From an uncultured delta proteobacterium (GTDB taxonomy: Bacteria > Desulfobacterota > Desulfobacteria > Desulfobacterales > JAHEIW01), in contig CAVPNL010000006.1 of NCBI GenBank assembly GCA_963706575.1, positions 896,001 through 960,000 on the forward strand: DNA of 64,000 nt, read 5' to 3'. The notes under the pieces are model-generated. The model was not told the origin of the DNA. It was given only the letters and a program-made list of their open reading frames with translations, and made no database searches. The translations under genes were made by a program, and so were the position numbers. The stretch's first letter is position 1; each line of letters begins with the position of its first letter. Positions 24,127 to 40,616 of this stretch are shown piece by piece.

Positions 24127-25887
24127 CTACTTTTGCGTGACGCGCAGTACCTCTTCAATCGTGGTCAGGCCGTTTAATACCTTCTGCATGCCGTCCTGCC
24201 GTAGCGTTCTCATTTTTTGCTGCACGGCTTCATTTTTTATGCGGTTTGAGTCAAACGTTTTGAGAATGAGGCTTTTTAAGTGCTCGGTCAGCACCATGAT
24301 TTCGAATATGCCTAACCGCCCTCTATATCCGGTGTTGAAACAATTTTCACATCCCACCGCTTTGTAGACCGTATGCTCCTTAAAACGATTCGGCGAAAAC
24401 CCGATGCTTTTGAGATAGATCGGGTTTGGGATATAGGCTTTTCTGCAAGCTTCACAAAGCACGCGCACCAGTCGCTGGGCCACCACCGCCAAAATAGATG
24501 ATGAAATTAAAAACGGCTCTACCCCCATATCCACCAGACGCGTAATTGCGCTGGCAGAATCGTTGGTATGAAGGGTGGAGAACACCAGATGACCGGTCAG
24601 GGCGGATTGAACGGCAATTTCGGCGGTTTCCTTGTCGCGAATTTCGCCGACCAGGATGACGTCCGGATCCTGACGGACAATCGATCTGAGGCCGCGGGCA
24701 AATGTCAGCTCGATTTTGGGATTCACCTGAATCTGACTGATGCCGTTGATTCGGTATTCGATGGGGTCTTCGATGGTAATAATGTTGATGTTGGGCTCGT
24801 TGATCGACGATAATATCGCATACAGTGTTGTAGTTTTGCCGCTGCCCGTAGGCCCGGTATTGAGGATAATCCCATTGGGGTTGGAAACCAGCCTTTTCAA
24901 CAATTTCAGTCTGGTGGGGGTCAGGCCCAGGTCCTGCAGCTCAAGCAGTGAGCCGGATTTATTGAGCAGCCGCAAAACCAGCCGTTCACCAAATGCCGTC
25001 GGGATGGTGGAAACTCTCACATCGATATCCTGATCGCCGATCTTAACCTCAAAGCGCCCGTCCTGGGGCAAACGTTTTTCAGCAATATTCATTTTTGCCA
25101 TGACTTTGACTCTGGAGATCAAAGCCGGTTGGATCCATTTCGGGGGTGTCAGCAGGTCATAGAGAATACCGTCCACCCGGTAACGGACCGTAAAGCTGTT
25201 CTGGTAGGGTTCAAAATGAATATCGCTGGCGCGCGCCTTGATGGACTGGGATATGATGTGATTGACCAATTTGATAATCGGGGCGTCGCTGGTGTCATCC
25301 AGCAAGTCGGCGGTTTCTTCTATTTCACTGATAATGTTGCTGCCGTTTTCTTCCATGTCCTGGACCAGCTGTTCGGCCGAATCCCGCCTTAAATCATATT
25401 GCAGGTTGATGGCTGAAACGATGGCTTCCCGGGTGGACAGTACCGTACGATAATTGTCGATGCCGATGGTCTTTACGAGATCATCCAGGGGCTGAAAGTT
25501 CAGCGGATCGTTTATGGCAATAATGCACCCCGGTGCAAATTGCGTTGTCTCAGTTTGAGGATCATTCTGGGGCGTCAGGCCGCAATCTTTGGCTGAGATC
25601 GGCTGGCTGTATTCCAGGGGGACGATATTATATTTTTTCAAAAACTGAATGGAGACTTTATCAGTGAAATCCGATTCGGTGTTGTCAAATGGCAGTTTTG
25701 GCCAGAAGGGCATTCCGTATTGGACGCTTAGCGCCTCCAACAATTGGTCTTCAGACAGGTTTTTTTGATCAATTAGAATTTGACCGATAGGGTTCCCGGT
25801 CTCGCTGCGCACGCGTTGGGCTTCGGCCAGATGGTCTTCGTTGAGACCGAATTTGTCTTTCAATATGTCTGTCAAACGATGAATCAT
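24127..25887 (-). CDS. gspE: Type II secretion ATPase GspE
   Basis: ASDIHFEP, EKRLPQDGR, GPTGSGKTTT, RQDPDVILVGEIRD, STLHTND, tetracysteine motif. Confidence 0.95.
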   Translation of the reverse strand: MIHRLTDILKDKFGLNEDHLAEAQRVRSETGNPIGQILIDQKNLSEDQLLEALSVQYGMPFWPKLPFDNTESDFTDKVSIQFLKKYNIVPLEYSQPISAKDCGLTPQNDPQTETTQFAPGCIIAINDPLNFQPLDDLVKTIGIDNYRTVLSTREAIVSAINLQYDLRRDSAEQLVQDMEENGSNIISEIEETADLLDDTSDAPIIKLVNHIISQSIKARASDIHFEPYQNSFTVRYRVDGILYDLLTPPKWIQPALISRVKVMAKMNIAEKRLPQDGRFEVKIGDQDIDVRVSTIPTAFGERLVLRLLNKSGSLLELQDLGLTPTRLKLLKRLVSNPNGIILNTGPTGSGKTTTLYAILSSINEPNINIITIEDPIEYRINGISQIQVNPKIELTFARGLRSIVRQDPDVILVGEIRDKETAEIAVQSALTGHLVFSTLHTNDSASAITRLVDMGVEPFLISSSILAVVAQRLVRVLCEACRKAYIPNPIYLKSIGFSPNRFKEHTVYKAVGCENCFNTGYRGRLGIFEIMVLTEHLKSLILKTFDSNRIKNEAVQQKMRTLRQDGMQKVLNGLTTIEEVLRVTQK

Positions 25888-25908
25888 AATGGGTAATTGA
25901 TAATGGAT

Positions 25909-27891: not shown

Positions 27892-28768
27892 TTTTATAAT
27901 TCAGGACCCGTTTCCGGCCGCGGCGCTTTATCTCCAGTTGGACTTCGGGAGTCGATGACAGGTCGCCAAAAATTTGCATCGCATCCTCCACCGATTCGAT
28001 GGGGGTGCCGTTGACGCCGGTAATGATGTCTCCATTGCGCAAGCGCATTTTCCTAAACATGGTGTTGGGTTTGATTGCCGTGATGGAAATTCCGGACGGT
28101 TTACCGTCTTCGATGTGCGGCCGGATGTTGGCCTGTTCCATGAGTTGATCGAGATTCTCCAGCGCATTTTCGATCTGATCACTTTTCAACGTGAGTTGAC
28201 GGGGATTAGGGGAAACCGGCAACCTGGGCGGTGAGGCCTCTTTTCTGGCAACCCGCGGACTCGATCCGCCCCCTTTTGCGGTTCCGGCTTCTTCCATCCC
28301 CAATACTTCATCGCGATCGTTTACACTCAAAACCACCTTTTGTCTTAATATCAATTTTACAGTGGCATCCTGGACGCTATCCCCGACGCGATACAGATTC
28401 TGCTGTCTGGTCTTCGTGTCTTCGATAACGGCATACGCCCGGCGCCCCTTGCCTGTTACCGTTCCCCATAACCTTAGCTTCAGATCCGTTTCTTTAAGAT
28501 TATCGACATTAATGGTCTTGGCAGGCGCTGCTACAACATCCGGGCTCGTGTTAAACAGGTTCCGTTTCGTAATGGCGCCATAGCGCGACAGCGGCGGATG
28601 ATCGTTTTGCTGTTTAAGGGTCACCTTATCCGGAAGGACCTGCGGCATTTCAACGGGGCTTAGCCAGGTCTTGCTGATGGTATAAACGGCGCTGACGCCA
28701 AGATAGACACCTGCGGTAATCAGCAGCACATTGGCGATCATAAAATATTTTTTAGCCGTCATCATCAT
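27884..28768 (-). CDS. gspC: Type II secretion protein GspC (TM-HR-PDZ), canonical copy
   Basis: N-terminal TM, RNLFN, LRLWGTV..AVIED..QNLYRVGD, PDZ LRNGDIITGVNG. Confidence 0.9.
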   Translation of the reverse strand: MMMTAKKYFMIANVLLITAGVYLGVSAVYTISKTWLSPVEMPQVLPDKVTLKQQNDHPPLSRYGAITKRNLFNTSPDVVAAPAKTINVDNLKETDLKLRLWGTVTGKGRRAYAVIEDTKTRQQNLYRVGDSVQDATVKLILRQKVVLSVNDRDEVLGMEEAGTAKGGGSSPRVARKEASPPRLPVSPNPRQLTLKSDQIENALENLDQLMEQANIRPHIEDGKPSGISITAIKPNTMFRKMRLRNGDIITGVNGTPIESVEDAMQIFGDLSSTPEVQLEIKRRGRKRVLNYKIE

Positions 28769-28811
28769 AGATTTAATCCAAAGACTGAACCCTTCTCTTT
28801 TGAAATGGGTT

Positions 28812-29675
28812 CTAGTTAAATGAATATTCGGGTGAATCCATGGTGCCGGTAATCTTAAATGGAAACCCCTGCTTATCCGAATTGCCGCCAGCGAAAAGTT
28901 GCGGAAGATTCTTTCCCAGCTTGGCCAGCAGCGCCGCTTGTGGATTTACCGTTCCGGACAAGTCCAATATTTTTCTTGCTGAACGACCGCTAAACTTAAT
29001 CGAACCCGAGATAAGGGCACCCAGCTGATTGCCTTCGATCTGACAGTGGTGAATGATCAAAGAACGGTTATTGAGCGCCAATTCAGCCTCGATTGTGTTA
29101 AAGGACAGCATGTTTTGATTCAGTACCGGGGGTGAAAATTCAATTTCCCCGTCAGTTAGAATCAGATCCCCATTTAACCCCTGATGGGGTGCTTTGGTTT
29201 TAAATGTCAGTGTGCCATCCAAATTGCCGGAAATTTTGTGGGTTGTTATGGCGCTTAATGCGTGCAGCTGTTTCACCTGTATTCCGACCAGATCCGCATC
29301 TATCGTCATCTCTCTGTTCGCAGAATTTTTGCTGATGTCCATCTGGCCTACTAAAGTACCGCCATAACCTTTACCCTTGAACGATAGATGGGTCGTTGAC
29401 AAAAATAATGATAAAATATCCGGAGATATTTTTAAGTTTTCCATCTCGGCCAGGGTCTGACCAAGATGGTATACGCTAACGTCATAAAGCTTTAAACCCG
29501 GTGGAAAACCCGGTTTTACCCGACCGATTTCTACCGCAAGGCCCGGGTGAACCTGGCGGACCTGATCCGCCAGATATTCTTTTACCGTGCCGGACGGAAA
29601 AAGAATATAAAAAAAGAGCAGAGCCGCACAAATTATGTAAATGACCCAAAAGATCTTAGCTTTAAAAACTTGCAT
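28812..29675 (-). CDS. gspN: Type II secretion protein GspN
   Basis: N-terminal TM ending YILFP, beta-rich body, position between gspM and gspC. Confidence 0.75.
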   Translation of the reverse strand: MQVFKAKIFWVIYIICAALLFFYILFPSGTVKEYLADQVRQVHPGLAVEIGRVKPGFPPGLKLYDVSVYHLGQTLAEMENLKISPDILSLFLSTTHLSFKGKGYGGTLVGQMDISKNSANREMTIDADLVGIQVKQLHALSAITTHKISGNLDGTLTFKTKAPHQGLNGDLILTDGEIEFSPPVLNQNMLSFNTIEAELALNNRSLIIHHCQIEGNQLGALISGSIKFSGRSARKILDLSGTVNPQAALLAKLGKNLPQLFAGGNSDKQGFPFKITGTMDSPEYSFN

Positions 29676-30226
29676 CAGGTTTCCAGGGTTTCAACCTGCA
29701 AGATGACATTAACGAGACCCTCGTTTTTATCTTTTTTTGAGATCGAAAGCTTTTTTACGATGACCATGTTTTTTGATGTTTCGATACCGTACAGATAGCT
29801 GGTGAGCTGCTCCAGCGTGACGGCATCTATTTTCATTTCAACCCGTGAAAGCCTGTAGTTGCTGTTTTTCTGGACCGTATTTGAAGGCTTCATATAACTG
29901 ATGCGGTCCTTGATGCCGGCCTGACCGGCGAGCTGATCCATAAAGGAAAAAAGCGTAAATCCTTTTTCTCTTTTGCCGATGCTGATTTGTGACCGCTGCA
30001 ATTTTTCTTTCAGGGCACTGTGTTCTGCTTGAAGGCGGCGCATCTCTGCAAGCTCTGATTTTTTGGTCTGCAAGTTTCGCTGCATCTGGTTTTTATTTTC
30101 AACAAAAGGCGTGATGACAAACTGGACGATGATCAGTAATCCTAAGAGACAGCCAGCCCCGTAAATTATATATTTTTCGCGCCGATTGAGCTTTTTCAGA
30201 TTTAAATATTTTTTTATAAATTCCAT
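29675..30226 (-). CDS. gspM: Type II secretion protein GspM
   Basis: LNRREK before a TM, coiled coil, C-terminal ferredoxin-like segment, synteny. Confidence 0.8.
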   Translation of the reverse strand: MEFIKKYLNLKKLNRREKYIIYGAGCLLGLLIIVQFVITPFVENKNQMQRNLQTKKSELAEMRRLQAEHSALKEKLQRSQISIGKREKGFTLFSFMDQLAGQAGIKDRISYMKPSNTVQKNSNYRLSRVEMKIDAVTLEQLTSYLYGIETSKNMVIVKKLSISKKDKNEGLVNVILQVETLET

Positions 30227-30248
30227 ATTAAGTGTCTGTGCAAACGTA

Positions 30249-31700
30249 TTATAATTCCACCTTCAATATGAAACGCACCTCATTCCCCGAGCGATCGATG
30301 TTGGACGAGCTAATGGTGACTTTCTCAAATTGCGGGATCTGTTCCAGTCGACTTTTAATGCCGTCCACCGAGTTGTAGGTGTCGGTTGTACCGGAGATTA
30401 CCACATTATCCGGTTGAATGACCAGCCGGGTCAGGTTAACCGTGATGCTTTCAGGAATTTTCTCGCTGATGCTGTTTAAAATATCAATGCTGCGGATATG
30501 AGGCCCGGCTTCGGCTTCAAAGGTCGCAGTTTTTTTCGTTTCCCGGATCTTGGCCTGCATTTCCTGATATGGATATCGAATCGTCTTAACCGCCGGAAAT
30601 GTCGACTTAAACACTTGAGCCATCTGGCTGTTGATACGGCTGATGTGTTTATTTAATGTATACGATTCCATTATCAGGGTAAAAAAGAATAGCACCAGTA
30701 CAGCTGCTGCCAGGATGCCGGTTTTTATTAAGGGGCCTTTATGTTTGGATATAAATTTCTGGGCGGCAAACTGGCCCTTGTGGAAATTAAGGCCATCGTA
30801 ACCTTCGACTTCCATCAAGGCGAGCGCCAGGGCATTGTCCATTTTGGCCGGAATCCACGGGTTTTCCACCTTACTTTCCATTGGAATGTTCAGACGGTCT
30901 GCAATTGAGGCTGTCTTAACCGGGAGATCGAGTGCCCTGGATAGTTGCGGGATGATATCCGTTTCATCCAGCCCGATTCCATTGGCAAGCACTTCAATAG
31001 GTTCAAAATTCAATTCCGATGATTCCAAAAAGGCCGCCAGCGTTTGCTGGATTTGAGCGCAGAGCTGTGGCGCTTTAGAGGAGCCGGCGGGCGGTAATGG
31101 AAACGATCGTATCAGCTGCAGGCGGCCGCCCGCCAGGACAAAAAGGGTGCCGTAGGTATCATCAATTTCGATAAAAAGCTGGTCTTCTTCCGGATCGGCC
31201 TGGTTGGCCAGACACAGGGCAGTGGGCAACCCGCTGAGTGTCAGTTTTTCAGGGTCGGCTTGAATGGATGCCAGGGCATCCATATAGGGTGACAATTTGC
31301 TTTTTTCAATCGCCGCTGCGATGAGTTCAGTCTGCTCACCGGCCGTGGAGCTATCTAAGGTGTGAAAATCTATAACCAGATCTTCGGCGGCATAGGGCAG
31401 AGTGGTTTCGAGTTCAAAGGGCAGAACCATACGGATTTTTTTGGAATTGCTGAATGGGATCCGCAGGTTTCGGAAGATCGCCTGATTGGCGGGGATGGAA
31501 ACCACATAGTCACTACCGGTTAAGTCCATTTCTTCCGCCATGGTTTGCAGCGCGGACGACAGGCTTCTTTCCGGGTCTTCGGGACCGGAAAAGGGCAGGT
31601 GGATAAAATCTTCCACGCGGTGTTCCCGCAGGCTGCTGTGTAAAAGCACTGCCGTTACCGTTTCATTTCGGATATCGATGCCGAGGACTTTTCTACTCAT
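30249..31700 (-). CDS. gspL: Type II secretion protein GspL (PilM/PilN-like)
   Basis: VLGIDI actin-like start, LPFELE, TM, PilN-like C-terminus. Confidence 0.85.
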   Translation of the reverse strand: MSRKVLGIDIRNETVTAVLLHSSLREHRVEDFIHLPFSGPEDPERSLSSALQTMAEEMDLTGSDYVVSIPANQAIFRNLRIPFSNSKKIRMVLPFELETTLPYAAEDLVIDFHTLDSSTAGEQTELIAAAIEKSKLSPYMDALASIQADPEKLTLSGLPTALCLANQADPEEDQLFIEIDDTYGTLFVLAGGRLQLIRSFPLPPAGSSKAPQLCAQIQQTLAAFLESSELNFEPIEVLANGIGLDETDIIPQLSRALDLPVKTASIADRLNIPMESKVENPWIPAKMDNALALALMEVEGYDGLNFHKGQFAAQKFISKHKGPLIKTGILAAAVLVLFFFTLIMESYTLNKHISRINSQMAQVFKSTFPAVKTIRYPYQEMQAKIRETKKTATFEAEAGPHIRSIDILNSISEKIPESITVNLTRLVIQPDNVVISGTTDTYNSVDGIKSRLEQIPQFEKVTISSSNIDRSGNEVRFILKVEL

Positions 31701-31832
31701 TAGCCATCTATTTTTTAAGTTAAAAATTTATTAGATGAAACAGTGAATAAGTTCTACCACGAAAGCACGAAAATTCGAAAACACGAGATTGATAGTTTTC
31801 GTGCTTGTTTCTAGTTGCCTTGGTTCTGATTC

Positions 31833-32918
31833 TCACGAATCAGTTTGATAGCTTAAAATTTTGCAGGACCATTTGCCGGTTTTTTCATTTTTTAACCGTT
31901 GGACCACTGCGGTTGTGGTCAGCACGGAATCATTTACTTTTGCCGTCGAAATAATCCTGAAAATGTCACTTGCCGTGGTGATCAAATTTTTATCCAGATT
32001 CATTGCGCTAAATCCGGCAATGTTTTTATACCATGTTGGGTCCGATAAGTCAGGGGCATCTTTGCCGCTTGCGGCTTCCTGGCGCCATTCGAAAAAGCCC
32101 AGGGCCAAGTCCGCGTTTTCAGACGGCAGCATCGAGACGAGTACCGGAAGCGGTGCGGTGTTGATGTTTATCTTTCCGGTAAAGGTAAACGATGTGCCGG
32201 CCCCCGCTGTCATGCCGTATACGGTCAATGAGTCCGCTATTGCGGGCGTTTCCGTGCTGCCGTAAAATAATTCGGGCGTGATGCCCTTGACCAGCAACAA
32301 ATCATTGATGTCCGCTATCGGACCGTTGCGACTGCTGTAGGCGGGGCTCAAATCCTGATAATATGTGGATTCGGCACCGCTTAATCCCGTAATGGCTTCA
32401 TCATCGCCGGAATCAAGCCAGTCTTTCAGTGAATTGATAATTGCCGGTGGCTGACTGTCTTCCGGCGTTTCTTCACCGGCATCCTTAAAAATGTTAAAAT
32501 ACCGCTCCAGAAGCTGGCGCTGGGAATCGTTAAAATTCCGGCTGTCGGGAAACGCGACCAGGGCGTTTACCTGAATACGGCCCATTTCGTCGGAAATGGC
32601 GACCGAAAGCGTTCCGTCATCAAAAGGGATTTCGCTCAGCAACTCGTTTATTTTGTCTGGATTTGCCCAGTCCTCCTGTAAAGAGTCGATATTTGACTCT
32701 GCCCGGTCTTTTGCCAGCAGCGCCATGGCGGCATGAATACCGGAAGTTGCCATTTGAGAAAGGGTCAGGCGATCCCGTGCAGCGGCTGCCGAAAGAACCG
32801 CAAAACGTGCCCGACGATTGTATTCCAGTGCCGTAGCGACAAGAATGGTTGTTACGGAAATGACCAGCAAAAGGGCAATGCCGCGTTCATTACCGATCGT
32901 TTTGGTCATGTTTACCAT
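31833..32918 (-). CDS. gspK: Minor pseudopilin GspK
   Basis: NERGIALLLVI, DEMGRIQVNAL, DWLDSGDD, GAES, LLLVKGIT, KININTA. Confidence 0.9.
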   Translation of the reverse strand: MVNMTKTIGNERGIALLLVISVTTILVATALEYNRRARFAVLSAAAARDRLTLSQMATSGIHAAMALLAKDRAESNIDSLQEDWANPDKINELLSEIPFDDGTLSVAISDEMGRIQVNALVAFPDSRNFNDSQRQLLERYFNIFKDAGEETPEDSQPPAIINSLKDWLDSGDDEAITGLSGAESTYYQDLSPAYSSRNGPIADINDLLLVKGITPELFYGSTETPAIADSLTVYGMTAGAGTSFTFTGKININTAPLPVLVSMLPSENADLALGFFEWRQEAASGKDAPDLSDPTWYKNIAGFSAMNLDKNLITTASDIFRIISTAKVNDSVLTTTAVVQRLKNEKTGKWSCKILSYQTDS

Positions 32919-32921
32919 TTC

Positions 32922-33764
32922 TTAATCGATTTTCTCCCGGGATACGGGCAAAGACACCATGGTTTCAAAGGTTTGCGATACCTTTTTATTTGCCAATTCC
33001 AGTTTTATGGCAATTGCTTTCGGTGTCGCATAGCCGAATTCATCCGAGTCCGAATCCCAGACATCGAATTCGATCCCATCTTTGTCATAAAATTTAAATG
33101 ACAAGGATTTGACGTACTTACACAATGCCGGGTCACTGCCTTTTTCTTCAAATTCAGGATATGGGAAAAGGTTATCCGCCCGTTTCAGCGTCAGATGCCC
33201 GTCATCTCCGGCTTTAACGTAATATATGATTTCAGCAATTCCTTGTCTGATAATTTTCTCAAAACCAACATGGGCCCGGCTGGTGAATCTTAAATTTTGT
33301 GCAAATCCCGTGCCACCGGAATCAGCGACGGTGGCGACAAATCGATACGGATCCGGCGGCTGATCGAATTCAGGCGGCTTATAAATCGGTCGCTGGGCAA
33401 CGTGGATCGACTCCAGGTCAAGCGACATGCGTTTCAGGCAGTTTTTCGCCATTTCATATATATCCGCACTTTCGTCTAACACTTCTGTGGTTGAAAATAC
33501 GGAATTAAACGATGCCAGAACAGTCGTCACCACGATTGCCAGTATCGCGGTCGCCACCAGGATTTCCATCAAGGTGAAACCTGCAACTGGTTTCTGGCTA
33601 ATGGTTTCTGGCCTCTGGTAGCTGGCTTCTGGCGAATGGCTTCTGGCTTCTGGCTGCCGGTTGCTGTTCGCCAGAAATTTGAAGTCTAAAATGTGGAACT
33701 GAACCATAAATAACCCATAAATTGGATAATTTAAATCAGACGTTAATCTTATTAAATTCCGCAA
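32922..33764 (-). CDS. gspJ: Minor pseudopilin GspJ (start uncertain)
   Basis: GFTLMEILVA N-methylation motif and synteny. Confidence 0.8.
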   Translation of the reverse strand: MRNLIRLTSDLNYPIYGLFMVQFHILDFKFLANSNRQPEARSHSPEASYQRPETISQKPVAGFTLMEILVATAILAIVVTTVLASFNSVFSTTEVLDESADIYEMAKNCLKRMSLDLESIHVAQRPIYKPPEFDQPPDPYRFVATVADSGGTGFAQNLRFTSRAHVGFEKIIRQGIAEIIYYVKAGDDGHLTLKRADNLFPYPEFEEKGSDPALCKYVKSLSFKFYDKDGIEFDVWDSDSDEFGYATPKAIAIKLELANKKVSQTFETMVSLPVSREKID

Positions 33765-33793
33765 TGCGAATTCCGCAATCCGAATTCGAACAG

Positions 33794-34219
33794 CTATTCC
33801 CTTTGAAACCGATACGTTCTTAAACTGTGTGAAAATTGGTTGTTGTTATACGATATAGTGAGGTCGACTTGCTTTAAATCATTGGCAACTTCCCCCAGCA
33901 CCTCAGAGGATACATCGGCTACTGAAGTCCGCCAGCTATAGCCCGGGTATTGCTCGCCGAAGTCGCCTGAATCGTTCGGGAAACCGTCTGATGAAAGGGT
34001 TTCCAGTTCAGCCATCTTGTTTTGGGCCAACAGGGGAGCCAGGGTATAAAACCGGGCCGCGGTGTTCATGGTCAAACTCTGGGAGTGCATTCGGTACACG
34101 CTCACCAGAACGATTGACATAACCGCCAGGGCAATCATGACTTCAAGCAATGTAAAACCGAATGCGGTTGGTGAAAACCCGGGCAGGTCCTTGAGATATC
34201 GATGTTTGAATCCAGTCAT
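33794..34219 (-). CDS. gspI: Minor pseudopilin GspI
   Basis: GFTLLEVMIALAV, LLAQNKMAELE. Confidence 0.85.
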   Translation of the reverse strand: MTGFKHRYLKDLPGFSPTAFGFTLLEVMIALAVMSIVLVSVYRMHSQSLTMNTAARFYTLAPLLAQNKMAELETLSSDGFPNDSGDFGEQYPGYSWRTSVADVSSEVLGEVANDLKQVDLTISYNNNQFSHSLRTYRFQRE

Positions 34220-34403
34220 TGGGCGTATACTTTATTATACATCTTCAATCCACACTATTATACAAAATTTGACACCAAATATACAGTTTTATTTATAAAA
34301 AATATGGAGAAATTTTTGTGCTTGAGATTCCGGGCAAAATCGAAGTCGGCTAGTGGATAGAAAGATGGTTTCGGATTTTAGGTTATTCATTTAGACCGCT
34401 GAT

Positions 34404-34985
34404 TCAATTTTCAAAACTGGCATACATCTCGTAGCGAGTCACTTCAGAAATAAAAGGCTCGATCAGATAGGATACATATTTGTCTCCGTCTTGAATGTGG
34501 ATCAGGACCTTATCCGAGGTGCCGTTTTTATAAAACCAGATATCGGTCTGCCCCGAATTTATTTTGCCGCGAATGGGGTATTCGATATCAGCGATTTTAA
34601 GGCCGCTCGGGAGGGAACTGGCATTCAACGAAGCGTTTTCAAGTTCTTCAGCCGACATGGAGGCATCGGTTTCCCAGAACTGTTCCGTATCCAGGTTGAT
34701 ATGTAGCGAATATTGCTTTTGATTGCGGAGCGCCGCTTCTTTTAATGCCTGAATTTTGCCGATAATCCATCGCGAACCTGTTTTGGTTTTGTCCAGCAAC
34801 AAGGTTTCATGGAAACGGGGGACGGTAAAAATGAGCATGATACCCAACAACGACATGACCACAATCAGCTCCAGCAGCGTAAAACCGTTCCGGTGTCCGT
34901 TGTCAGTCGTCCGTGGTCCGTTGTTGAGAGCTATTTGGGTTTTACAATATTCTAATAGCATTTTGAAAAGGTTCAAATCTGACAA
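34404..34985 (-). CDS. gspH: Minor pseudopilin GspH
   Basis: GFTLLELIVVM and synteny. Confidence 0.8.
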   Translation of the reverse strand: MSDLNLFKMLLEYCKTQIALNNGPRTTDNGHRNGFTLLELIVVMSLLGIMLIFTVPRFHETLLLDKTKTGSRWIIGKIQALKEAALRNQKQYSLHINLDTEQFWETDASMSAEELENASLNASSLPSGLKIADIEYPIRGKINSGQTDIWFYKNGTSDKVLIHIQDGDKYVSYLIEPFISEVTRYEMYASFEN

Positions 34986-34991
34986 AATTCT

Positions 34992-35441
34992 TTATTCTAT
35001 TTCCCAATTGTTAATATCCTGATCATCCTCCCCTTCGCCGCCGGGTGCGCCATCTTTCCCGTAGGAAATTAAATCAAAGTCGCTATTTACACCCGGGGAA
35101 ATATATACAAATTCGTTTCCCCAGGGATCTTTCGGCACCTTGCGCTTTTCGAGATATCCGCCTTCGCGCCATTTTTTCGGTATTACTCCGGTCTCGGGTT
35201 TTTCAACCAGCGCCACAAGTCCCTGTTCAGTTGACGGGTATTCGCCATTGTCAAGTTTGTACATTTTTAGAGCGGTCTCAAAGGTGGTGATATCCATTTT
35301 GGCTTTTACGCGTTTTGCTTTATCGGGTTCCCCCATTATTTTGGGGCCGACGTAGAGTGCCAGGATGCCGAGTATGATCACAACAACCATTAATTCTATT
35401 AAAGTAAATCCACGGCTGTCATGTTTAATCCTTTGAAGCAT
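34992..35441 (-). CDS. gspG: Major pseudopilin GspG
   Basis: [45 protein letters not shown]. Confidence 0.95.
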
Positions 35442-35738: not shown

Positions 35739-36647
35739 ATGACCCTTACAAAAACCGATATTATTGGGGCCGTGTCCGACCGTACGGGATTCAGCAAGAA
35801 AAAATCCCGCCTTTCCGTAAATAGCCTTATCGAAATCATCAAAAGTACGCTTGAATCCGATCAGAACATCAAAATCGGTCATTTTGGCAAATTCGATATC
35901 AAAGAAAAGAAAGCGCGCCCATGGCGCAGCCCCTTTACCGGCAAGATCATGATGCTTCCCCCCCGGCGGGTGGTGACGTTTAAGCCTTTTAAGCGGCTAA
36001 AAGATAAAATCAATACGCAGCCCATCAGCATTGAGCCCCAAGAACGTTCTCGCGCAAAAATTCGTCCGATCCGAACGGGTGCCTTAACAAAGGATGAATT
36101 AAAGAAAATTTTAACTGAGCACAGACGCTGGCTGGATTCCCAGGGTAAAAGCGGGGAAAAGGCCGTCCTGTCGCACGCGACGCTTTTCAGAGCCGATCTG
36201 TATGCAGCCAAACTTTCCTTTATCGACTTTCAAGGCGCTGATCTGCGGGAAGCCGTTTTATCAGAAGCCGATCTCTATGATGCCAATCTTCGGGACACCA
36301 ATCTGGCCGATGCTGTCCTTGATTGGGCTAGTCTTGATGGCGCCAAACTTCAGCGAGCTTCTCTCCAAGGGGCTGATCTTCGATGGGCCAATCTTGAAGG
36401 CGCCAATTTGTCAGGCTGCAACCTCCGATTCGCCAACCTGGAAGGTGCCAATCTCAAAGACGCGAAGTTAACTGAGGCGAATCTATATGGTGCGAACCTG
36501 ACAAATACAGATTTGAAGGGTGCCATACTGGCCAAGATCAAGCTGGATTATGAAACCCAGTTAAATCTGCCGCAATCCGTTTTCGACAAATACCGGCAAA
36601 CCTTTCGGATTCTGGAATGGTCACCGGCCCTATCACCGTCTTATTAA
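35739..36647 (+). CDS. IHF/HU-like DNA-binding domain fused to a pentapeptide-repeat domain
   Basis: MTLTKTDII..IKIGHFGKFDIKEKKARPWRSPFTG..RRVVTFKP, then ELKKILTEHRRWLDSQG and about 20 A(D/N)Lxx repeats. Confidence 0.85.
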   Translation: MTLTKTDIIGAVSDRTGFSKKKSRLSVNSLIEIIKSTLESDQNIKIGHFGKFDIKEKKARPWRSPFTGKIMMLPPRRVVTFKPFKRLKDKINTQPISIEPQERSRAKIRPIRTGALTKDELKKILTEHRRWLDSQGKSGEKAVLSHATLFRADLYAAKLSFIDFQGADLREAVLSEADLYDANLRDTNLADAVLDWASLDGAKLQRASLQGADLRWANLEGANLSGCNLRFANLEGANLKDAKLTEANLYGANLTNTDLKGAILAKIKLDYETQLNLPQSVFDKYRQTFRILEWSPALSPSY

Positions 36648-36719: not shown

Positions 36720-36792
36720 CCATGTACTGTCGTTTTCCGCCATGAGTTGTCCTCCTGGAGCCATGAGCTGTCGCTCTGCACCATGAGCTGGC
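36720..36792. repeat. Four phased 12-bp direct repeats (CCATGWRYTGKC), period 20/21/20 bp
   Basis: ccatgtactgtc 36720, ccatgagttgtc 36740, ccatgagctgtc 36761, ccatgagctggc 36781. Confidence 0.8.
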
Positions 36793-36959
36793 AAGGCTTT
36801 CTTTTTTTATTCACTAAGCGCTTGCGCCATTGCGGTGTATGGTATAAAATTGTTTTATAATCGCTCATCAAAAATACAGTCACCTGGCCTCTCAGCACAT
36901 GCCACGCCAGTGCAATTTCCATTTGTTGCTCTATCCCGATTGGCCGACTTATTAGCAAG

Positions 36960-39302
36960 ATGGCTTCAAAGCGCAAATCAAAAAAATCTGTCTCGAAGAT
37001 TCCGCCTAAAACGGCAGAGTATGTTGTCGCGGTGTCCCTGCAGCACCCCAAACTGGGTGCCCGGCGTCTAGTGCCGCTGCTGAAAAAGAAGCGCATACCC
37101 GTATCCGCCGCATCCATCCAGAGCATCCTGCGCCGCGAGGGCCTCCAGAACTGTGAAAAGCGGCTGGCGAAGCTCAAAATGCAGGCACAGAAACCCAAAT
37201 CGATCCCAAAGAAACCTTCCGCCAGGATCCCGGACAAAGTTGCCGGGCGTATCGTCGCGGTATCGCTGAAAAACCCTGAGATGGGTGCCCGACGCCTGGT
37301 GCCGTTGCTGAAAAAAAAGCGGATATCCGTATCCGCCGCAACCGTCCAGAGCGTCCTGCGCCGCGAAGGCCTTCAAAGCCGTGACAGGCGGCTGGCGCAG
37401 ATCAAGAGGCGCGCCCAAAAGGCCCAAAAACCCAAATCACCGCCAAAGAAGCCTGAAACCAAAATCACCGACGAGGTTACTGATCGTATCGTCGCGATCG
37501 CCCTGCAGAACCCCGATTTCGGCGCCCAACGGTTGCTGCCGATATTGAAAAAGGAAAAAATCCGAATTCCCGCTTCGACGGTCTATGCGGTATTGAAGCG
37601 TCATGGTCTGCAGTCCCGTGCTGCGAGAATGGCGAAACTGGAGGAGCGGAGCAAAGCGGCCCCCAAGCCCGAGTCGCCGCCTAAAAGGACTTTGCCCAGA
37701 ATCACCGATGAGGTTGCCGGGCACATTTGCGAGATATCTCTGCAAAACCCCGATTTGGGAGCCAAACGCCTGGCACCTCTGCTGAAAGAACACGGAATAT
37801 CTGTATCCGCATCGGCTGTCTATCGTATTCTAAAGCATTACCAACTGCAAACGCTTGCAAAACGGTACGCCAAAGTCGCGAAAATCACCTCGGAACCGGT
37901 GATCATTCCAAAGACATTTCCCGAAAAGATTCCGCCCGAGGTCGAAGACCGCATTTCCGAGATTTCTTTGCAAAATCCCGAATGTGGTTCCCGGCGCCTG
38001 ATACCGTTATTGCAGCAGGAGGAAATTTTTGTTTCGGCCTCTGCTGTTTATCGGATCCTGAAGCGCAACAATCTAGAAAATCTGCAAAAAAGGCTTTTGA
38101 AACGCGAAGCGCTGCAGGCCCCGGAGACCCCGCCTGAACCCGAAATAGAGGGGCCCCAAGCTATCGCTGAAGCGGCGGAAATAGAACCGACCGCGGCTGT
38201 GGACCAAGGGCCGGAGCCGGTTTTCGAGCCTGCGGTTACCGTCCCGATTCCGCCCGTGGATAAAGCGCCTGCTCCTGCGGAGGAGCCGGAGCCCACACTG
38301 GAACCTGCGGTGGCTGAAGCCGTTAAAGCCGCTGCACCTGCTAAATCCGAACGATCACCTGTTCGAAAAGCACCTGTAAAAACAATTAGAAAAAGGAGCC
38401 ACTGGGTTTTCTATCCGCTCTATCTTCTGCTGTTTCTTCTGATCGGATATCTGGGGTTGCACGCCGTACAGAGCATCCAATATGCCCGGCTGGATACCGA
38501 AGCCATGCAAATCGATGCTTCTGTTGCGGTCGGTGTCGCTGCAAAAACGGTGACCGCCGCGCAGCCTCTTGACGGTTACCGTCAAATCTGGGAGCGCAAC
38601 CTGTTTAATACCGGCAGTGTCAAGGAGCCCGATCCGGCGGAAAAAATTGCCCTCGCCAGGCTCGCGCCGGCTAAAAAGGGCCTGGGCCTCGAACTGGTGG
38701 GAACGGTGGTGGCTGACAACCCCAAAATGAGTCGCGCCATCATTGACAATCGCAGCATTCGAAAGCAGGAAGCCTACCGTGAAGGGGAAACGGCCGGAAA
38801 GGTCCGCATTAAAAGAATATTGCGCAACAACGTGGTCATTACCACCGATAAAGGCGACGAGCTGCTCACGGTCGAGATCAAAGAATCCGGCAGAAGCGCT
38901 CCTTCCACACAGACACAACAAATTGGCAGCCAGTCATCTTCAACCCAACAGGCAACCGGGACCCGGCAGCAAAGCGCCAGAACCAGTTCCATTAGACTCA
39001 AGCGCGACGAGGTCGCGGCTTCCCTTGCCGATATCGACGGATTAATGGAGAAGATGAAGATTGCGCCTCATAAAAGCGGAGATCAAGCGGCCGGCTTCAG
39101 GCTTGGCAGTATAACGCGTGACAGTGTTCTGCGACAAATGGGGCTGCGCAGCCGGGATGTGATTGTGGGCCTAGATGACGAAACAATCACCAGCCCGGAT
39201 CAGGCCCCGGACTTTTTCAAAAAGCTTGCTGACGGGGGTGAAGTTACCATCAAACTCAAACGCCGCCGCCGCACCCGCCAGATAAAACTCAACATCGAAT
39301 GA
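36960..39302 (+). CDS. GspC paralogue with five N-terminal IS481-like HTH repeats, Pro/Glu linker, TM, HR and PDZ domains
   Basis: Five repeats of 76-79 aa (I..ISLQNP..GARRL.PLL....I.VSAS.VY.IL.R..LQ...R), TM WVFYPLYLLLFLLIGYLGL, and a C-terminal region that aligns by eye with GspC 27884..28768. Confidence 0.85.
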   Translation: MASKRKSKKSVSKIPPKTAEYVVAVSLQHPKLGARRLVPLLKKKRIPVSAASIQSILRREGLQNCEKRLAKLKMQAQKPKSIPKKPSARIPDKVAGRIVAVSLKNPEMGARRLVPLLKKKRISVSAATVQSVLRREGLQSRDRRLAQIKRRAQKAQKPKSPPKKPETKITDEVTDRIVAIALQNPDFGAQRLLPILKKEKIRIPASTVYAVLKRHGLQSRAARMAKLEERSKAAPKPESPPKRTLPRITDEVAGHICEISLQNPDLGAKRLAPLLKEHGISVSASAVYRILKHYQLQTLAKRYAKVAKITSEPVIIPKTFPEKIPPEVEDRISEISLQNPECGSRRLIPLLQQEEIFVSASAVYRILKRNNLENLQKRLLKREALQAPETPPEPEIEGPQAIAEAAEIEPTAAVDQGPEPVFEPAVTVPIPPVDKAPAPAEEPEPTLEPAVAEAVKAAAPAKSERSPVRKAPVKTIRKRSHWVFYPLYLLLFLLIGYLGLHAVQSIQYARLDTEAMQIDASVAVGVAAKTVTAAQPLDGYRQIWERNLFNTGSVKEPDPAEKIALARLAPAKKGLGLELVGTVVADNPKMSRAIIDNRSIRKQEAYREGETAGKVRIKRILRNNVVITTDKGDELLTVEIKESGRSAPSTQTQQIGSQSSSTQQATGTRQQSARTSSIRLKRDEVAASLADIDGLMEKMKIAPHKSGDQAAGFRLGSITRDSVLRQMGLRSRDVIVGLDDETITSPDQAPDFFKKLADGGEVTIKLKRRRRTRQIKLNIE

Positions 39303-39389
39303 CCCGGGCAGTGATTTAACATTCTTTGATCGCAGAGATGGGTTCTGATTAGAAGTGGTTTCAAAACCACTTATAGGAAAGGTGCCCAA

Positions 39390-40616
39390 CTAACGGATCA
39401 GCTGATTCATTTCAAAGATGGGCAGGCAAATCGAAAGCACGATGAATCCGACTATGCAGCCCATTACCAGGATCATGACCGGTTCCAGGTAAGACGTCAG
39501 CCTCAGGATGCTGTTTTCGGCCTCTTTTTCAAAAATATCGGCAATTTTATTGAGCATGCCTTCCAATTCACCGCTTTGCTCTCCAACCTGAATCATCTGG
39601 ATGGACAACTGCGGAAAAACCTTGCTTTCGTTCAACGCCGCCCATAACGCCTGCCCTTTGCCGACCTCCTGGGCTGCTTTTTGCACGGCATTGGAAATCA
39701 ACACATTGCCGGCGATATTTTTGACGATATCCAGCGCAATTAACATGGAGACGCCGTTTTCAAGCAGAGAACCCAGTGTCCGGGTAAAGCGGGCGACCGC
39801 CAGTTTTTTTACCAAAACGCCAAAGACCGGCAACGAAAGCAGGGTTTTATCGTAAACGTAACGACCGTTTTCGGTTTTCTTGACGCGATGCAGGGTGATG
39901 CCGGCACCAATTACGATCATAAGGATAACCCACCAAAACGATTTAAAAAATTCACTTAAAAAAATGAGCAACCGCGTCGGAGTCGGCAGGACCTGGTTCA
40001 TGTCCATAAAAATAGCGGTGATACTGGGCACAATGTAGGTTAAAAGCACAAACAACACCAGGGTACCGATGATACACATGAAGAGGGGATATGCCAGGGC
40101 GGTTTGAATACGATTGCTTAAATCCTGCGCTTTTTCGGTAATGTCTGCCAGGCGTTCAAGCACAATTTCGAGTGTGCCGGAAGTCTCGCCGGCGCGGACC
40201 ATGTTGATAAACAGGGGGGGAAAAATTCCCGGATACTGCGATAAGGCCTGCGCAAAATTCTGGCCTTCAACAATGGCATCTTTAACCTGGGCCAGTACCG
40301 TTTTAAGGCGACGGGATTTGGTTTGGGGCACCAATGCATCGATTGCAGAGACCAGCGGGAAACCGGCGCTAATCAATGTTGCCAGCTGCCGGGTCATTAT
40401 GGAGGTTTCGGCGGGTTTGACCCGGGTCAGATAGCGCGACAGACCAAGGTTTCGGGACGCTTTTTTTACCGGCTCCTCCTGGGATTCTTTGATGGCAACC
40501 GGGAAGATACCGCTTGAGCGTAATTTCTGGCGTGCGGCACGTGCACCGTCGGCGTCGATAATACCGGAGGTTGTTTTTCCTTTGGCATCCAGTGCCGTAT
40601 ATTCATAGACGGGCAT
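39390..40616 (-). CDS. gspF: Type II secretion inner-membrane platform protein GspF
   Basis: MPVYEYTALD, TRQLATLISAG, MVRAGETSG, ALAYP, VGEQSGEL, LEPVMI. Confidence 0.95.
   Translation of the reverse strand: MPVYEYTALDAKGKTTSGIIDADGARAARQKLRSSGIFPVAIKESQEEPVKKASRNLGLSRYLTRVKPAETSIMTRQLATLISAGFPLVSAIDALVPQTKSRRLKTVLAQVKDAIVEGQNFAQALSQYPGIFPPLFINMVRAGETSGTLEIVLERLADITEKAQDLSNRIQTALAYPLFMCIIGTLVLFVLLTYIVPSITAIFMDMNQVLPTPTRLLIFLSEFFKSFWWVILMIVIGAGITLHRVKKTENGRYVYDKTLLSLPVFGVLVKKLAVARFTRTLGSLLENGVSMLIALDIVKNIAGNVLISNAVQKAAQEVGKGQALWAALNESKVFPQLSIQMIQVGEQSGELEGMLNKIADIFEKEAENSILRLTSYLEPVMILVMGCIVGFIVLSICLPIFEMNQLIR

Follow-up and report, generated by a model that had tools for sequence, protein, structure and literature searches.

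A GspC-family protein with five transposase-type helix-turn-helix modules in a type II secretion gene cluster of an uncultured Desulfobacterales bacterium

The secretion gene cluster and its two-gene insert

The window, a stretch of 64,000 nucleotides from the genome of an uncultured delta proteobacterium, contains a cluster of genes for a type II secretion system (T2SS). On the minus strand lie gspD (25909–27891), which encodes a secretin matched by the Pfam models Secretin, Secretin_N and GspD N0; a canonical gspC of 294 amino acids (27884–28768); gspG (34992–35441; Pfam T2SSG, 2.7e-42), the first gene of a gspG-to-gspE run; and gspF (39390–40616; Pfam T2SSF, 2.2e-62). Two genes on the plus strand are inserted between gspG and gspF. 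The second of these (36960–39302), convergent with gspF, encodes the protein of 780 amino acids that is the subject of this report and is here called HTH-GspC. The two genes form an insert at this position in this genus, and gspF adjoins gspG in relatives that do not carry it; in the window, the insert parts gspF from gspG, so that gspG acquires a new upstream region. No IS ends, terminal inverted repeats (TIRs) or target duplication are seen at the insert junctions when these are compared with insert-free relatives.

The first gene of the insert (35739–36647, plus strand; 302 aa) encodes an HU/IHF-like domain (Pfam Bac_DNA_binding, 5.1e-25) together with pentapeptide repeats (Pfam Pentapeptide, 2.5e-34), and its best NCBIfam match is IHF-alpha. 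The ATG at 35739 is taken as its start, in agreement with the 302 amino acids of its homologues, and the mechanically called reading frame begins at a TTG at 35637. A full-length orthologue is present in seven of the ten related genomes that bear the HTH-GspC fusion, always adjacent to it, and in none of the 31 others. A complex prediction for this partner and the HTH array (aa 1–390) gave a score of 0.00, which speaks neither for nor against binding. The pentapeptide domain was also considered as a DNA mimic; its net charge is only -4, so charge gives no support to that idea.

In the spacer upstream of the HTH-GspC gene, a 12-mer resembling CCATGAGCTGTC occurs as four direct repeats (36720–36792, plus strand) at 20/21/20-bp spacing. 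Similar repeats also lie upstream of HTH-GspC orthologues in G013, G014 and G015, and about a dozen more partial copies are dispersed over the genome of the window. In a survey of 41 genomes, the paired motif occurs in eight, all of the same genus, six of which are without HTH-GspC (G002, G003, G006, G007, G019 and G020); conversely, it was not found in eight carriers of HTH-GspC, including G005, G012, G013, G015 and G016. The array was therefore rejected as a dedicated autoregulatory operator: it belongs to a genus-specific dispersed repeat that does not track the HTH-GspC gene.

Five helix-turn-helix modules at the N-terminus

The reading frame at 36960–39302 is open and intact, and from N- to C-terminus its product comprises five transposase-type helix-turn-helix (HTH) modules, an acidic spacer, a transmembrane (TM) helix, a GspC homology region and a PDZ domain. 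Repeats 1 (aa 12–75, 36993–37184), 2 (aa 88–151, 37221–37412), 3 (aa 167–230, 37458–37649), 4 (aa 247–310, 37698–37889) and 5 (aa 322–385, 37923–38114) were delimited on the plus strand. All five were placed by a repeat HMM, an alignment and a repeat tree, which assign them to positional types A, A', B, C and D, A' being a duplicate of A; the membrane-proximal fifth repeat was also modelled alone (pLDDT 93.4). An earlier note on this DNA, made from the letters alone, had proposed five tandem repeats with anchor codons at 37035, 37263, 37500, 37737 and 37965. All five anchors prove to be in frame, at amino acids 26, 102, 181, 260 and 336, and the spacing of 76/79/79/76 amino acids is reproduced. 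The 52-residue cores of the repeats share 44–69% pairwise identity. In particular, repeats 1 and 2 are 69% identical as protein and 79% identical as DNA, compared with 54–63% in DNA for the remaining pairs, which bears out the same note's remark that these two are still alike at the DNA level.

The assignment of the repeats to transposases is consistent across model libraries. Pfam matches the array with HTH_32 (3.3e-31, four stretches), HTH_21 (1.2e-22) and HTH_Tnp_Tc3_2 (6.9e-18), and the NCBIfam model of IS481 transposases, NF033577, matches it in five stretches (1.4e-42) at profile positions from approx. 36 or 58 to 116 of 284. Thus, the resemblance that the note had pointed out, to the HTH preceding the DDE core of IS481-family transposases, is recovered by the model, and HTH_32 is found as the note expected. 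The second-best transposase family is IS3, and matches in PHROGs to the HTH part are to transposase families only. The score of the whole protein against NF033577, 146.2 bits, is under the cut-off of 224, and no rve/DDE domain was found by Pfam in the HTH-GspC of the window; this agrees with the note, which saw neither a DDE core nor TIRs. A faint match to HTH_Cbp1 (E 0.006) scores 16.5 bits against a cut-off of 140.

The array is strongly basic, with a net charge of +54 over residues 1–386. This charge is graded along the array, from +11 and +14 in the membrane-distal repeats 1 and 2, through +6 and +4 in repeats 3 and 4, to +1 in the repeat beside the membrane. The same trend is seen among 106 homologues, in which the mean charge is +12.0 for the first, +6.1 for the middle and +0.9 for the last repeat. 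The linkers between the modules are also basic, of a KPKSPPKKP-type or SPKK-like composition. In the AlphaFold2 (AF2) model of the full-length protein, whose domains fold separately from one another, the five modules are predicted with a pLDDT of at least 90, repeat 1 as a four-helix module, and the linkers fall below 50. When the single-repeat model is compared with known structures by Foldseek, the top matches are the paired domains of Pax5/6/8 and the RED subdomain of Sleeping Beauty, all weak (E 0.4–3). VIA-align gives Z scores of approx. 6 for sigma-54 RpoN, residues 59–104 of Tc3 transposase, Myb and ArgR, a range to be read with the tool's own caveat that Z<8 is common. The model is closest to DNA-bound HTH domains; together with the basic charge and the HU/IHF-type partner, this suggests that the array may bind DNA.

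Spacer, membrane segment and GspC-like half

The array is followed by an acidic, Pro/Glu-rich spacer (aa 387–468, 38118–38363, plus strand) with 19 prolines, 17 aspartates and glutamates and a net charge of -13; it is predicted to be disordered, with a pLDDT below 50 over residues 393–480. A juxta-membrane segment (aa 469–481, RKAPVKTIRKRSH), with a net charge of +6, immediately precedes a single TM helix (38403–38504, plus strand), which is supported by hydropathy, flanking charge and AF2; the helix extends over residues 482–515 in the AF2 model, with a hydrophobic core at 482–503. By the positive-inside rule, the +6 charge of RKAPVKTIRKRSH ahead of the helix, together with the topology of GspC, places the N-terminus inside. 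HTH-GspC is thus computed to have one TM segment and a cytoplasmic N-terminus, and the repeats are predicted to be cytoplasmic, as the earlier note had supposed.

Beyond the membrane, the GspC homology region (HR; Pfam T2SSC, aa 517–634, with a beta-domain at 577–637; 38508–38861, plus strand) is delimited by Pfam, NCBIfam, the strands of the AF2 model and an alignment with GspC; T2SSC (PF11356) scores 30.9 bits, above its cut-off of 27. The C-terminal PDZ domain (aa 675–779, 38982–39296, plus strand) is only weakly matched by Pfam, with PDZ_6 and PDZ_2 at 19.6 and 19.5 bits (aa 717–778) under a cut-off of 27. It is, however, matched by the sequences of solved structures, OutC (6hcg, E 3e-7) and PulC (5hj1, E 3e-6), and AF2 models the region as a confident alpha/beta domain with a pLDDT of about 90. 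The combination that the note had read from the letters, a Pro/Glu linker, one TM segment and HR plus PDZ regions like those of the window's own gspC, therefore holds, down to the T2SSC and PDZ matches that it expected.

BLASTP aligns HTH-GspC with the window's own GspC at 29% identity over 298 amino acids (E 6e-33), and the motifs RNLFNT, LxGTV, YRxG and xKRR are common to the two. The NCBIfam model GspC_delta (NF041515) spans profile positions 4–311 on HTH-GspC with 126.8 bits, under the equivalog cut-off of 150; the canonical GspC, which has both T2SSC and PDZ matches, exceeds that cut-off with 166.8 bits. Exactly two T2SSC matches are found in the genome. By sequence, the C-terminal half of HTH-GspC is a diverged paralogue of the GspC of the cluster, and the protein is an accessory, second GspC-family inner-membrane protein, added to GspC and not replacing it.

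Distribution of the family and selection

Homologues of HTH-GspC fall into 179 clusters at E<=1e-3. Among 121 homologues examined, six have five repeats, 45 have four, 55 have three, 12 have two and three have one. Diversity is greatest in the one-repeat form, to which 43 of 58 new representatives belong. The ratio dN/dS is 0.18 and 0.26 for the HTH cores, 0.17 and 0.21 for HR, and 0.20 and 0.28 for PDZ. The family is therefore conserved and under purifying selection, and the possibility raised in the earlier note, that the fusion might be missing from relatives and free of such selection, is contradicted by these clusters and by ratios of approx. 0.2. In an alignment and in the repeat tree, the repeats group by position and not by protein, which indicates that the array is old and differentiated; the one exception is repeat 2, which seems to have arisen later by duplication of repeat 1.

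The gene is nevertheless accessory and patchy, being carried by 10 of 41 related genomes. Within the genus, a search of 21 other genomes failed to find it in 14, and it is thus dispensable for T2SS function. In the cultured relative Desulfosarcina, the only match was the canonical GspC. In the window the gene is encoded inside the T2SS cluster, between gspG and gspF; elsewhere in the family the loci are many and varied and have no neighbouring promoter in common, and the stretch fetched around HTH-GspC in G012, G013, G015, G016 and G034 showed no gsp genes. A six-frame search of the window's own genome with a five-repeat HMM revealed neither a further copy nor any close donor transposase; the same genome contains five secretin-family matches. 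Public annotation gives members of the family no other names than 'T2SS protein C/N' and 'HTH domain protein', and no description of the family was found in full-text literature searches.

Transposase origin

Three diverged relatives, P0356, P0323 and P0347, still have an IS481 DDE core, in degenerate form, located after the HTH and before the TM segment. They match the IS481 model from approx. position 50 to 272–284 of 284, and then most or all of GspC_delta. In all three, the second catalytic Asp is absent; the positions of the catalytic triad are those that we assume from the general rve pattern. Moreover, an NPC(F/L)RER segment is common to basal members of the family and free-standing relatives. 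In a tree of the GspC halves, 55 HTH-bearing C-terminal halves split from 15 canonical GspCs with a branch support of 97%; the three core-bearing proteins lie in an unresolved basal polytomy of the HTH-bearing group, and the array has expanded, not shrunk, in two clades. A metagenome scan for the contig of P0356 recovered only three short, distant loci.

With one to five repeats, purifying selection and members that have a degenerate core, the family represents a domesticated transposase joined to a secretion component. The earlier note had proposed that a transposase DNA-binding domain was amplified and fused to such a component. Amplification and fusion are both supported, and the order is refined: since three relatives at the base of the tree keep a degenerate core and the one-repeat forms are the most diverse, it is likely that a whole transposase body was fused, that its DDE core then decayed or was lost, and that the HTH was amplified afterwards.

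Comparison with known systems

HTH-GspC resembles GspC in its single TM segment, its inside N-terminus, its periplasmic HR followed by PDZ, its 29% identity and its place in the T2SS cluster. On its cytoplasmic side, GspC is considered to have just a short tail, in place of which HTH-GspC has an extension of 481 residues. Further differences are that it scores under the GspC_delta cut-off, coexists with a canonical GspC and is accessory, and that several of its relatives are without gsp genes in the stretch fetched. It is also comparable with GspB/OutB/ExeB, which likewise are bitopic inner-membrane proteins that have a GspC-like HR and occur beside GspC. As excerpted text of PMC9239104 describes it, the GspB family is characterised by variable length and added domains, and its members sometimes occur with a GspA-type AAA+ ATPase bearing a peptidoglycan-binding domain; a gene with AAA_22 and SPOR domains adjoins the fusion in two related loci, L016/L046 and L048. 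Unlike GspB, HTH-GspC has no Pfam T2SSB match at E<=0.01, has a GspC-like PDZ and, in the window, has no gspA adjoining. None of the seven GspB archetypes is described with HTH modules in the same excerpts, and the only extra cytoplasmic domain named there is DUF3391 (PMC9239104).

Each repeat corresponds to the HTH just before the catalytic core of IS481 transposases (NF033577; HTH_32/HTH_21 plus rve), from which the protein of the window differs in its missing DDE core, its score under the curated cut-off and the lack of TIRs at the insert junctions. Regulators of the ToxR type have a cytoplasmic N-terminal DNA-binding domain, one TM segment and a periplasmic domain. HTH-GspC shares this layout with ToxR and CadC; it differs in having tandem transposase-type HTHs and no OmpR/PhoB winged helix, and in that its periplasmic part is a secretion scaffold, not a sensor. 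Several homeodomain-like HTH units joined by basic linkers are also found in Cbp1-type and paired-domain (Pax/Tc1-mariner) proteins, and Pax paired domains, the RED of Sleeping Beauty and the second HTH of Tc3 are among the structures nearest to the repeat. With Cbp1, however, the model match is only faint; HTH-GspC is anchored in the membrane, and the presence of the upstream dispersed DNA repeat in the 41 genomes is not linked to that of the gene.

Possible functions

The best explanation, which we favour tentatively and at somewhat short of an even chance, is that HTH-GspC is a secretin-binding scaffold with a DNA-binding cytoplasmic arm, made of a domesticated transposase and a GspC paralogue. 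Its cytoplasmic N-terminus of 481 residues strings five four-helix HTH modules together like beads, and the acidic Pro/Glu spacer of some 80 residues keeps this array away from the membrane. Like GspC and GspB, the protein would use its HR/PDZ half to dock on the periplasmic N-domains of a secretin and would so become part of the ring that surrounds it. Portions of two reports describe binding of the HR domain of GspC and GspB to the secretin N0 domain (PMC9239104; PMC4098917), and by analogy secretin binding may be expected of HTH-GspC; the product of gspD in the window would then be the expected periplasmic partner. On the cytoplasmic side, the basic distal modules and their KPKSPPKKP-type linkers, helped by the IHF-like partner, would bind DNA avidly and with little sequence specificity. 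Secretin or T2SS assembly would thereby be tied to the nucleoid, which might serve to position it or to control DNA locally. The near-neutral membrane-proximal repeat and the four conserved positional types agree less well with purely non-specific binding than with specific partners, whether these are proteins or DNA sites. Moreover, given the score of the C-terminal half under the GspC_delta cut-off, the several loci without gsp genes in the stretch fetched and the five secretin-family matches of the genome, the product of gspD is no more than a candidate partner.

In a more far-reaching form, to which we give a low probability, HTH-GspC would provide a continuous link from the chromosome to the outer-membrane secretin: the basic distal HTH modules and the IHF-like partner would hold DNA, the spacer and TM helix would cross the membrane, and HR/PDZ would grip the secretin ring, so that the whole might act as a DNA-handling device. 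If true, such a link would serve nucleoid-guided placement of the secretion machine, DNA release, uptake or traffic of the filamentous-phage type. The device would have been built by transposase domestication, with the surviving DDE-bearing intermediates as a record of the path.

Two other roles for the array are each unlikely in our estimation. HTH-GspC might be a membrane-tethered, sequence-specific regulator similar to ToxR or CadC, in which HR/PDZ senses the status of the secretin or T2SS and the HTH types read half-sites of a composite operator, controlling genes for the T2SS or its substrates. The topology is that of the ToxR type, the one-repeat form is the most diverse, positional types kept across genomes are what separate sites for each type would lead one to expect, an IHF-like partner would fit the architecture of a promoter, and the insert supplies gspG with its new upstream region. 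However, a repeat number that varies from one to five among fairly close relatives is hard to square with a fixed operator. The gene also occupies many loci, which have no neighbouring promoter in common; the only candidate cis-element, the CCATGAG array, belongs to the dispersed repeat, whose distribution does not follow that of the gene. Binding without sequence specificity is what the extreme basic charge and the SPKK-like linkers suggest, and no OmpR-type winged helix is among the Pfam matches. It might instead be a protein-protein adaptor, a role that we judge improbable, in which HTHs without DNA binding recruit a GspA/ExeA-like AAA+ ATPase, cytoplasmic parts of the T2SS or the HU-pentapeptide beta-helix to a GspB-like scaffold. 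Such a role agrees with the near neutrality of the membrane-proximal repeat and with excerpts of PMC9239104, where GspB is an HR scaffold that usually occurs with GspA, varies widely in length and has an extra cytoplasmic domain in Alteromonas; according to part of PMC4098917, complex formation with ExeB needs the cytoplasmic ATPase domain of ExeA. In two of the 15 fusion-bearing loci L039–L053 (L048, and L046 of G034, which is also L016), the next gene on the same strand has the AAA_22 plus SPOR layout of GspA/ExeA. The AAA_22 domain of this neighbour matches the model of the TnsC transposition ATPase (1.2e-8), and it is conceivable that a transposase-derived module here meets a transposition-type ATPase. 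Nevertheless, GspA-like AAA_22 genes occur in 40 of the 41 relatives, with several paralogues in each, with or without the fusion, and give no co-occurrence signal; none adjoins the copy of the window, the distal repeats, with their high positive charge, look suited to a polyanion and not to a protein surface, and the mildly acidic pentapeptide domain is by charge a poor DNA mimic.

The array could also be a functionless evolutionary relic of a transposase that once inserted into a gspC paralogue and is now decaying, as its origin from a transposase with a decayed or lost catalytic core and its patchy presence as an accessory gene might suggest. Against this stand the dN/dS of the HTH cores, as low as that of HR and PDZ, an intact reading frame, conserved family members in the order of hundreds of clusters, positional types kept across genomes and the expansion of the array in two clades. 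With selection and conservation thus documented, a relic is very improbable and already largely refuted.

Significance

Members of this conserved family extend GspC by as many as some 480 cytoplasmic residues of DNA-binding-type modules, to which this lineage adds a dedicated nucleoid-protein partner. If the arm of the favoured scaffold does bind DNA, a T2SS component would be wired to the chromosome, an element not known from current T2SS models. Whatever its function, the family is an unusually clear case of bacterial transposase domestication, in which three states coexist: HTH with a dead DDE core and GspC, one HTH with GspC, and arrays of two to five differentiated HTHs. Its members also form a natural series in which the gain of valency by tandem HTH arrays can be studied. 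New here are the old, positionally differentiated array, the core-bearing relatives, the two-gene insert with its HU/IHF-pentapeptide gene and the charge gradient.

Additional observations

A reading as a defence system was also considered and rejected: PADLOC gave no match for HTH-GspC, P0356 or P0276, and for the partner only a marginal match of the IHF type. Upstream of the HTH-GspC gene, a conserved TTGCGC-17-TAAAAT element was not called by a consensus promoter scan. Pieces of the gene occur at 97–100% identity in contigs of two metatranscriptome runs, a weak hint that HTH-GspC is expressed.

Domain organization of HTH-GspC

The uninterrupted plus-strand ORF at 36960-39302 encodes a 780-aa product, HTH-GspC, in which five helix-turn-helix (HTH) repeats precede a GspC-like C-terminal half. 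The five anchors picked out in the earlier note lie in frame at residues 26, 102, 181, 260, and 336 (spacings of 76/79/79/76 aa). The 52-aa repeat cores share 44-69% pairwise protein identity; repeats 1 and 2 are indeed still alike at the DNA level (79% DNA and 69% protein identity, against 54-63% DNA identity for other pairs). Their assignment to the IS481-type HTH holds, as they are matched by both Pfam HTH_32 (3.3e-31, four stretches; followed by HTH_21, 1.2e-22, and HTH_Tnp_Tc3_2, 6.9e-18) and the NCBIfam IS481 transposase model (1.4e-42, five stretches). The latter matches span profile positions ~58-116 of 284, directly ahead of the catalytic core; the second-best NCBIfam model is IS3 (6e-32). 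Unlike a transposase, HTH-GspC possesses no catalytic core, as had been noted.

The repeats are followed by the expected Pro/Glu linker, an acidic spacer (aa 387-468, net -13), then by a basic juxta-membrane segment (+6) and a single hydrophobic segment (482-503), the predicted transmembrane (TM) helix. C-terminally, Pfam T2SSC, the GspC homology region (HR), matches residues 517-634 above its cut-off, and the PDZ region matches solved OutC and PulC chains. Over its last 299 aa, HTH-GspC aligns with the canonical GspC of the window (27884-28768, minus strand), to which it is 29% identical there (E 6e-33); the aligned region takes in the motifs that had led to the proposal of paralogy. Thus, the earlier observation as a whole was confirmed in every point.

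HTH-GspC has the TM segment, HR, PDZ domain, and T2SS-cluster location that define GspC structurally; however, it scores under the curated equivalog cut-off, and the part predicted to lie in the cytoplasm is very atypical. It resembles GspB in acting as a second HR scaffold but has neither a T2SSB match nor an adjoining gspA in the window. NCBIfam holds no dedicated model for HTH-GspC, the public names of its homologues are generic, and full-text literature searches found no description of it.

One repeat, modelled with a 30-unit alignment, forms a four-helix module (pLDDT 93.4). Its best Foldseek matches, with E of 0.4-3 and probabilities up to 0.9, are the DNA-bound paired domains of Pax8, Pax5, and Pax6, the Sleeping Beauty RED subdomain, FapR, ArgR, and Fur. 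An all-against-all aligner gave Z of about 6 for the sigma-54 RpoN domain on DNA, Tc3, Myb repeats, and ArgR (Tc3 transposase aligns through its second HTH, with Z 6.1 and an rmsd of 1.7 across 46 residues), values for which the aligner itself warns that Z below 8 is common. The predicted fold is therefore of a DNA-binding kind, which speaks to fold and not to function. The full-length model (pLDDT 72.6, pTM 0.24) resembles beads on a string: five confident modules are joined by linkers below pLDDT 50, and a disordered stretch (393-480) precedes the modelled TM helix (482-515), HR strands (577-637), and PDZ domain (675-779).

The net charge falls along the array, from +11 and +14 in repeats 1 and 2 to +6, +4, and +1 in repeats 3 to 5. 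The inter-repeat linkers, among which KPKS, PKKP, and PPKK motifs occur, carry +5, +4, +3, and 0. Residues 1-386 total +54, ahead of the acidic spacer. In homologues with three or more repeats, the mean charge is +12.0 for the first repeat (n=106), +6.1 for middle repeats (n=163), and +0.9 for the last (n=106).

Genomic context and distribution

The window contains a complete T2SS cluster on the minus strand, with gspE, D, C, an N-like gene, M, L, K, J, I, H, and G at 24127-35441 and gspF at 39390-40616. Between gspG and gspF lie two plus-strand genes, namely HTH-GspC and a gene for a 302-aa protein with an HU/IHF-like domain, pentapeptide repeats, and no TM segment (35739-36647 from its likely ATG). 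Three fusion-free genomes of the same genus (G004, G007, and G017) share the flanks found in the window: an Fe-ADH gene, a cation-efflux gene, gspF, and gspG on to gspE lie on a single strand, with gspF and gspG only 46-65 bp apart. The pair is thus a two-gene insert; its junctions showed neither IS ends nor a target duplication. The arrangement of the window recurs in two genomes of the genus (G014, G005). A sister-genus genome (G023) carries both genes at the gspF/gspG site, with HTH-GspC inverted onto the same strand after gspF. In G012 and G013, the pair lies elsewhere, beside radical-SAM, PK_C, SpoU, and ClpB genes, and three genomes (G015, G016, G034) carry HTH-GspC without the partner.

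A promoter-like element, TTGCGC-17-TAAA(A/C)T, lies at 36822-36850, about 110-140 bp upstream of the HTH-GspC start, and is conserved between the window and four or more orthologous loci (L019, L021, L017, L022); a consensus promoter scan did not report it. Ahead of this element, G013 and G016 have a hairpin and T-run 3' of the HU-pentapeptide gene; together, these features suggest separate transcription of the two genes. HTH-GspC and gspF converge across an 87-bp gap that contains a perfect inverted repeat of 9 bp (39353-39372; AAGTGGTTT..AAACCACTT). This repeat, which a terminator scan did not report, may form a shared terminator hairpin. A dispersed intergenic repeat, with units CCATGAG(C/T)TG(T/G)C at a period of about 20-21 bp and often 'cgttttccg' between them, occurs at 36720-36792, at C1:356250-356360 of the same genome, and at about a dozen other sites. 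Its paired CCATGAG motif is found in 8/22 genomes of the genus and 0/19 outside it (reversed-pattern control, 0). The repeat looks like a genus-specific REP-like element, and its presence does not follow that of HTH-GspC. The gspN position, between gspC and gspM, is occupied by a gene (28812-29675) that has weak YhdP/AsmA-like Pfam matches below cut-offs and is conserved among relatives (26-62% identity).

Within a set of 41 related genomes, the fusion was detected in 10. Besides the own genome, these comprise 7 of the 21 remaining members of the genus, 1 of 3 sister-genus genomes, and 1 of 16 genomes that belong to other families within the order. A canonical GspC (roughly 300 aa, about 30% identical to the C-half of the fusion) occurs in nearly all 41, including seven of the ten carriers, the other three being 68-84% complete; the fusion is therefore an addition to GspC and not a replacement. 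The own genome has exactly two T2SSC matches, canonical GspC and HTH-GspC. In a one-genome-per-species survey (185,579 species), nearly all fusion loci were in uncultured MAGs bearing the label Desulfobacterales, Deltaproteobacteria, or delta proteobacterium, and one short contig was labelled Gammaproteobacteria; cultured Desulfosarcina and Desulfosudis yielded only a canonical GspC match. Metagenomes contained 179 fusion clusters at E<=1e-3.

HTH-GspC is linked to its partner. Full-length HU-pentapeptide orthologues occur in 7/10 carriers and 0/31 non-carriers, always adjoining the fusion. In metagenomes, about 100 of the 120 partner matches listed represent full-length clusters, which are close to 302 aa in size and contain both domains, and in eight fusion/partner cluster pairs the longest contigs are exactly equal in size, a proxy for a shared contig. 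The HU part carries +14 and keeps the beta-arm proline; the pentapeptide part carries -4. The HU/IHF-pentapeptide fusion is an undescribed family in its own right, constant in size; the beta-helix has Trp/Asn/Leu positions that do not vary, and the C-terminal tail is conserved.

Metatranscriptome contigs from two runs of different studies match 38814-39041 (0 differences), 39090-39265 (3), 37425-37696 (2), and 39210-39351 (6); as RNA-library contigs may contain DNA, they give only a weak hint that HTH-GspC is expressed.

Origin and maintenance of the HTH array

The HTH array is old, DIFFERENTIATED, and selected. Among 121 proteins, some of them truncated, five repeats were counted in 6, four in 45, three in 55, two in 12, and one in 3. 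In the 30-unit alignment, and likewise in a tree built with 74 units of 21 proteins, repeats group by position and not by protein. The positional types are first (A), its duplicate A', B, C, and last (D), and the window array reads A, A', B, C, D. The dN/dS check proposed earlier bore out purifying selection, with HTH cores at 0.18 and 0.26 against two orthologues, compared with 0.17/0.21 for HR, 0.20/0.28 for PDZ, and 0.32/0.34 for the Pro/Glu spacer. Since the alignment paired a five-repeat protein with four-repeat ones, all of these figures are approximate. The family as a whole is conserved and under selection.

The array originated from a transposase. An exhaustive profile search with the repeat unit returned 1,315 proteins at E<=1e-3 (111 at E<=1e-10). 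Among the 150 matches listed, at least 58 new 50%-identity representatives also have the GspC half, with one repeat in 43, two in 14, and three in 1. In particular, three proteins, P0356 (617 aa), P0323 (653 aa, on two contigs), and P0347 (616 aa), match the IS481 model from ~50 to 272-284 of 284; their HTH and DDE core are followed by a TM segment and most or all of GspC_delta. An NPC(F/L)RER segment is common to these proteins and to free-standing relatives bearing the DDE core (rve). If the catalytic triad positions are, as we assume, those of the general rve pattern, an alignment at about 30% identity indicates that the second catalytic Asp is missing in all three, as are the first Asp and the Glu in P0323.

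A quick, midpoint-rooted maximum likelihood tree was computed for 70 GspC halves, after a canonical sequence containing a stop had been removed. In this tree, one branch with 97% SH-aLRT splits all 55 HTH-bearing proteins from 15 canonical GspCs. The three core-bearing proteins lie in the polytomy at the base of the HTH-bearing group, and forms with 3-5 repeats fall into two derived clades. The most parsimonious scenario is that a transposase body was fused once to a paralogue of GspC, that its core then decayed and was lost, and that the HTH was amplified last. Fusion and amplification, both proposed earlier, stand, with their likely order refined.

The same HTH recurs in 3-5 tandem copies in eight further proteins (P0269, P0270, P0298, P0303, P0309, P0317, P0329, P0330; 487-1091 aa). 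They are unrelated and soluble and have neither a GspC half nor a strong hydrophobic segment. Some of them have a high positive net charge (+40 to +54), and others are acidic. It therefore seems that this transposase-type HTH was amplified in tandem more than once.

Possible functions of HTH-GspC

We tentatively propose that HTH-GspC is a multivalent, low-specificity DNA anchor on a secretin-binding scaffold, a reading we hold at somewhat under even odds. The HR domains of GspC and GspB engage the secretin N-domain (PMC9239104, PMC4098917); by analogy, the HR/PDZ half would engage a secretin N-domain, while the basic distal HTH modules and linkers would bind DNA. We favor the anchor because charge is graded along the array, the partner is of a nucleoid-protein type, repeat number varies freely, and no neighboring promoter is conserved. 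The last two points weigh against a sequence-specific, ToxR-like regulator, which we consider unlikely even though the conserved positional repeat types would suit it. That the array is a functionless relic is contradicted by the selection data and hardly credible.

An equally improbable role as the regulator's is that of a protein adaptor for a GspA-like ATPase, which would draw on two related loci of distant lineages where an AAA_22+SPOR gene directly follows HTH-GspC (L016 7471-8853, in G034; L048 4894-6333) and on the match of its ATPase domain to the TnsC (type V-K CAST) model (1.2e-8). The encoded proteins are GspA/ExeA-like, with SPOR as a peptidoglycan-binding domain. The own genome has five secretin-family matches. 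Two adjacent secretin genes of about 945 aa (C6:389216-392518) and another beside a GspA-like AAA_22 gene (C11:68740-70862) encode further candidate partners for the HR domain.
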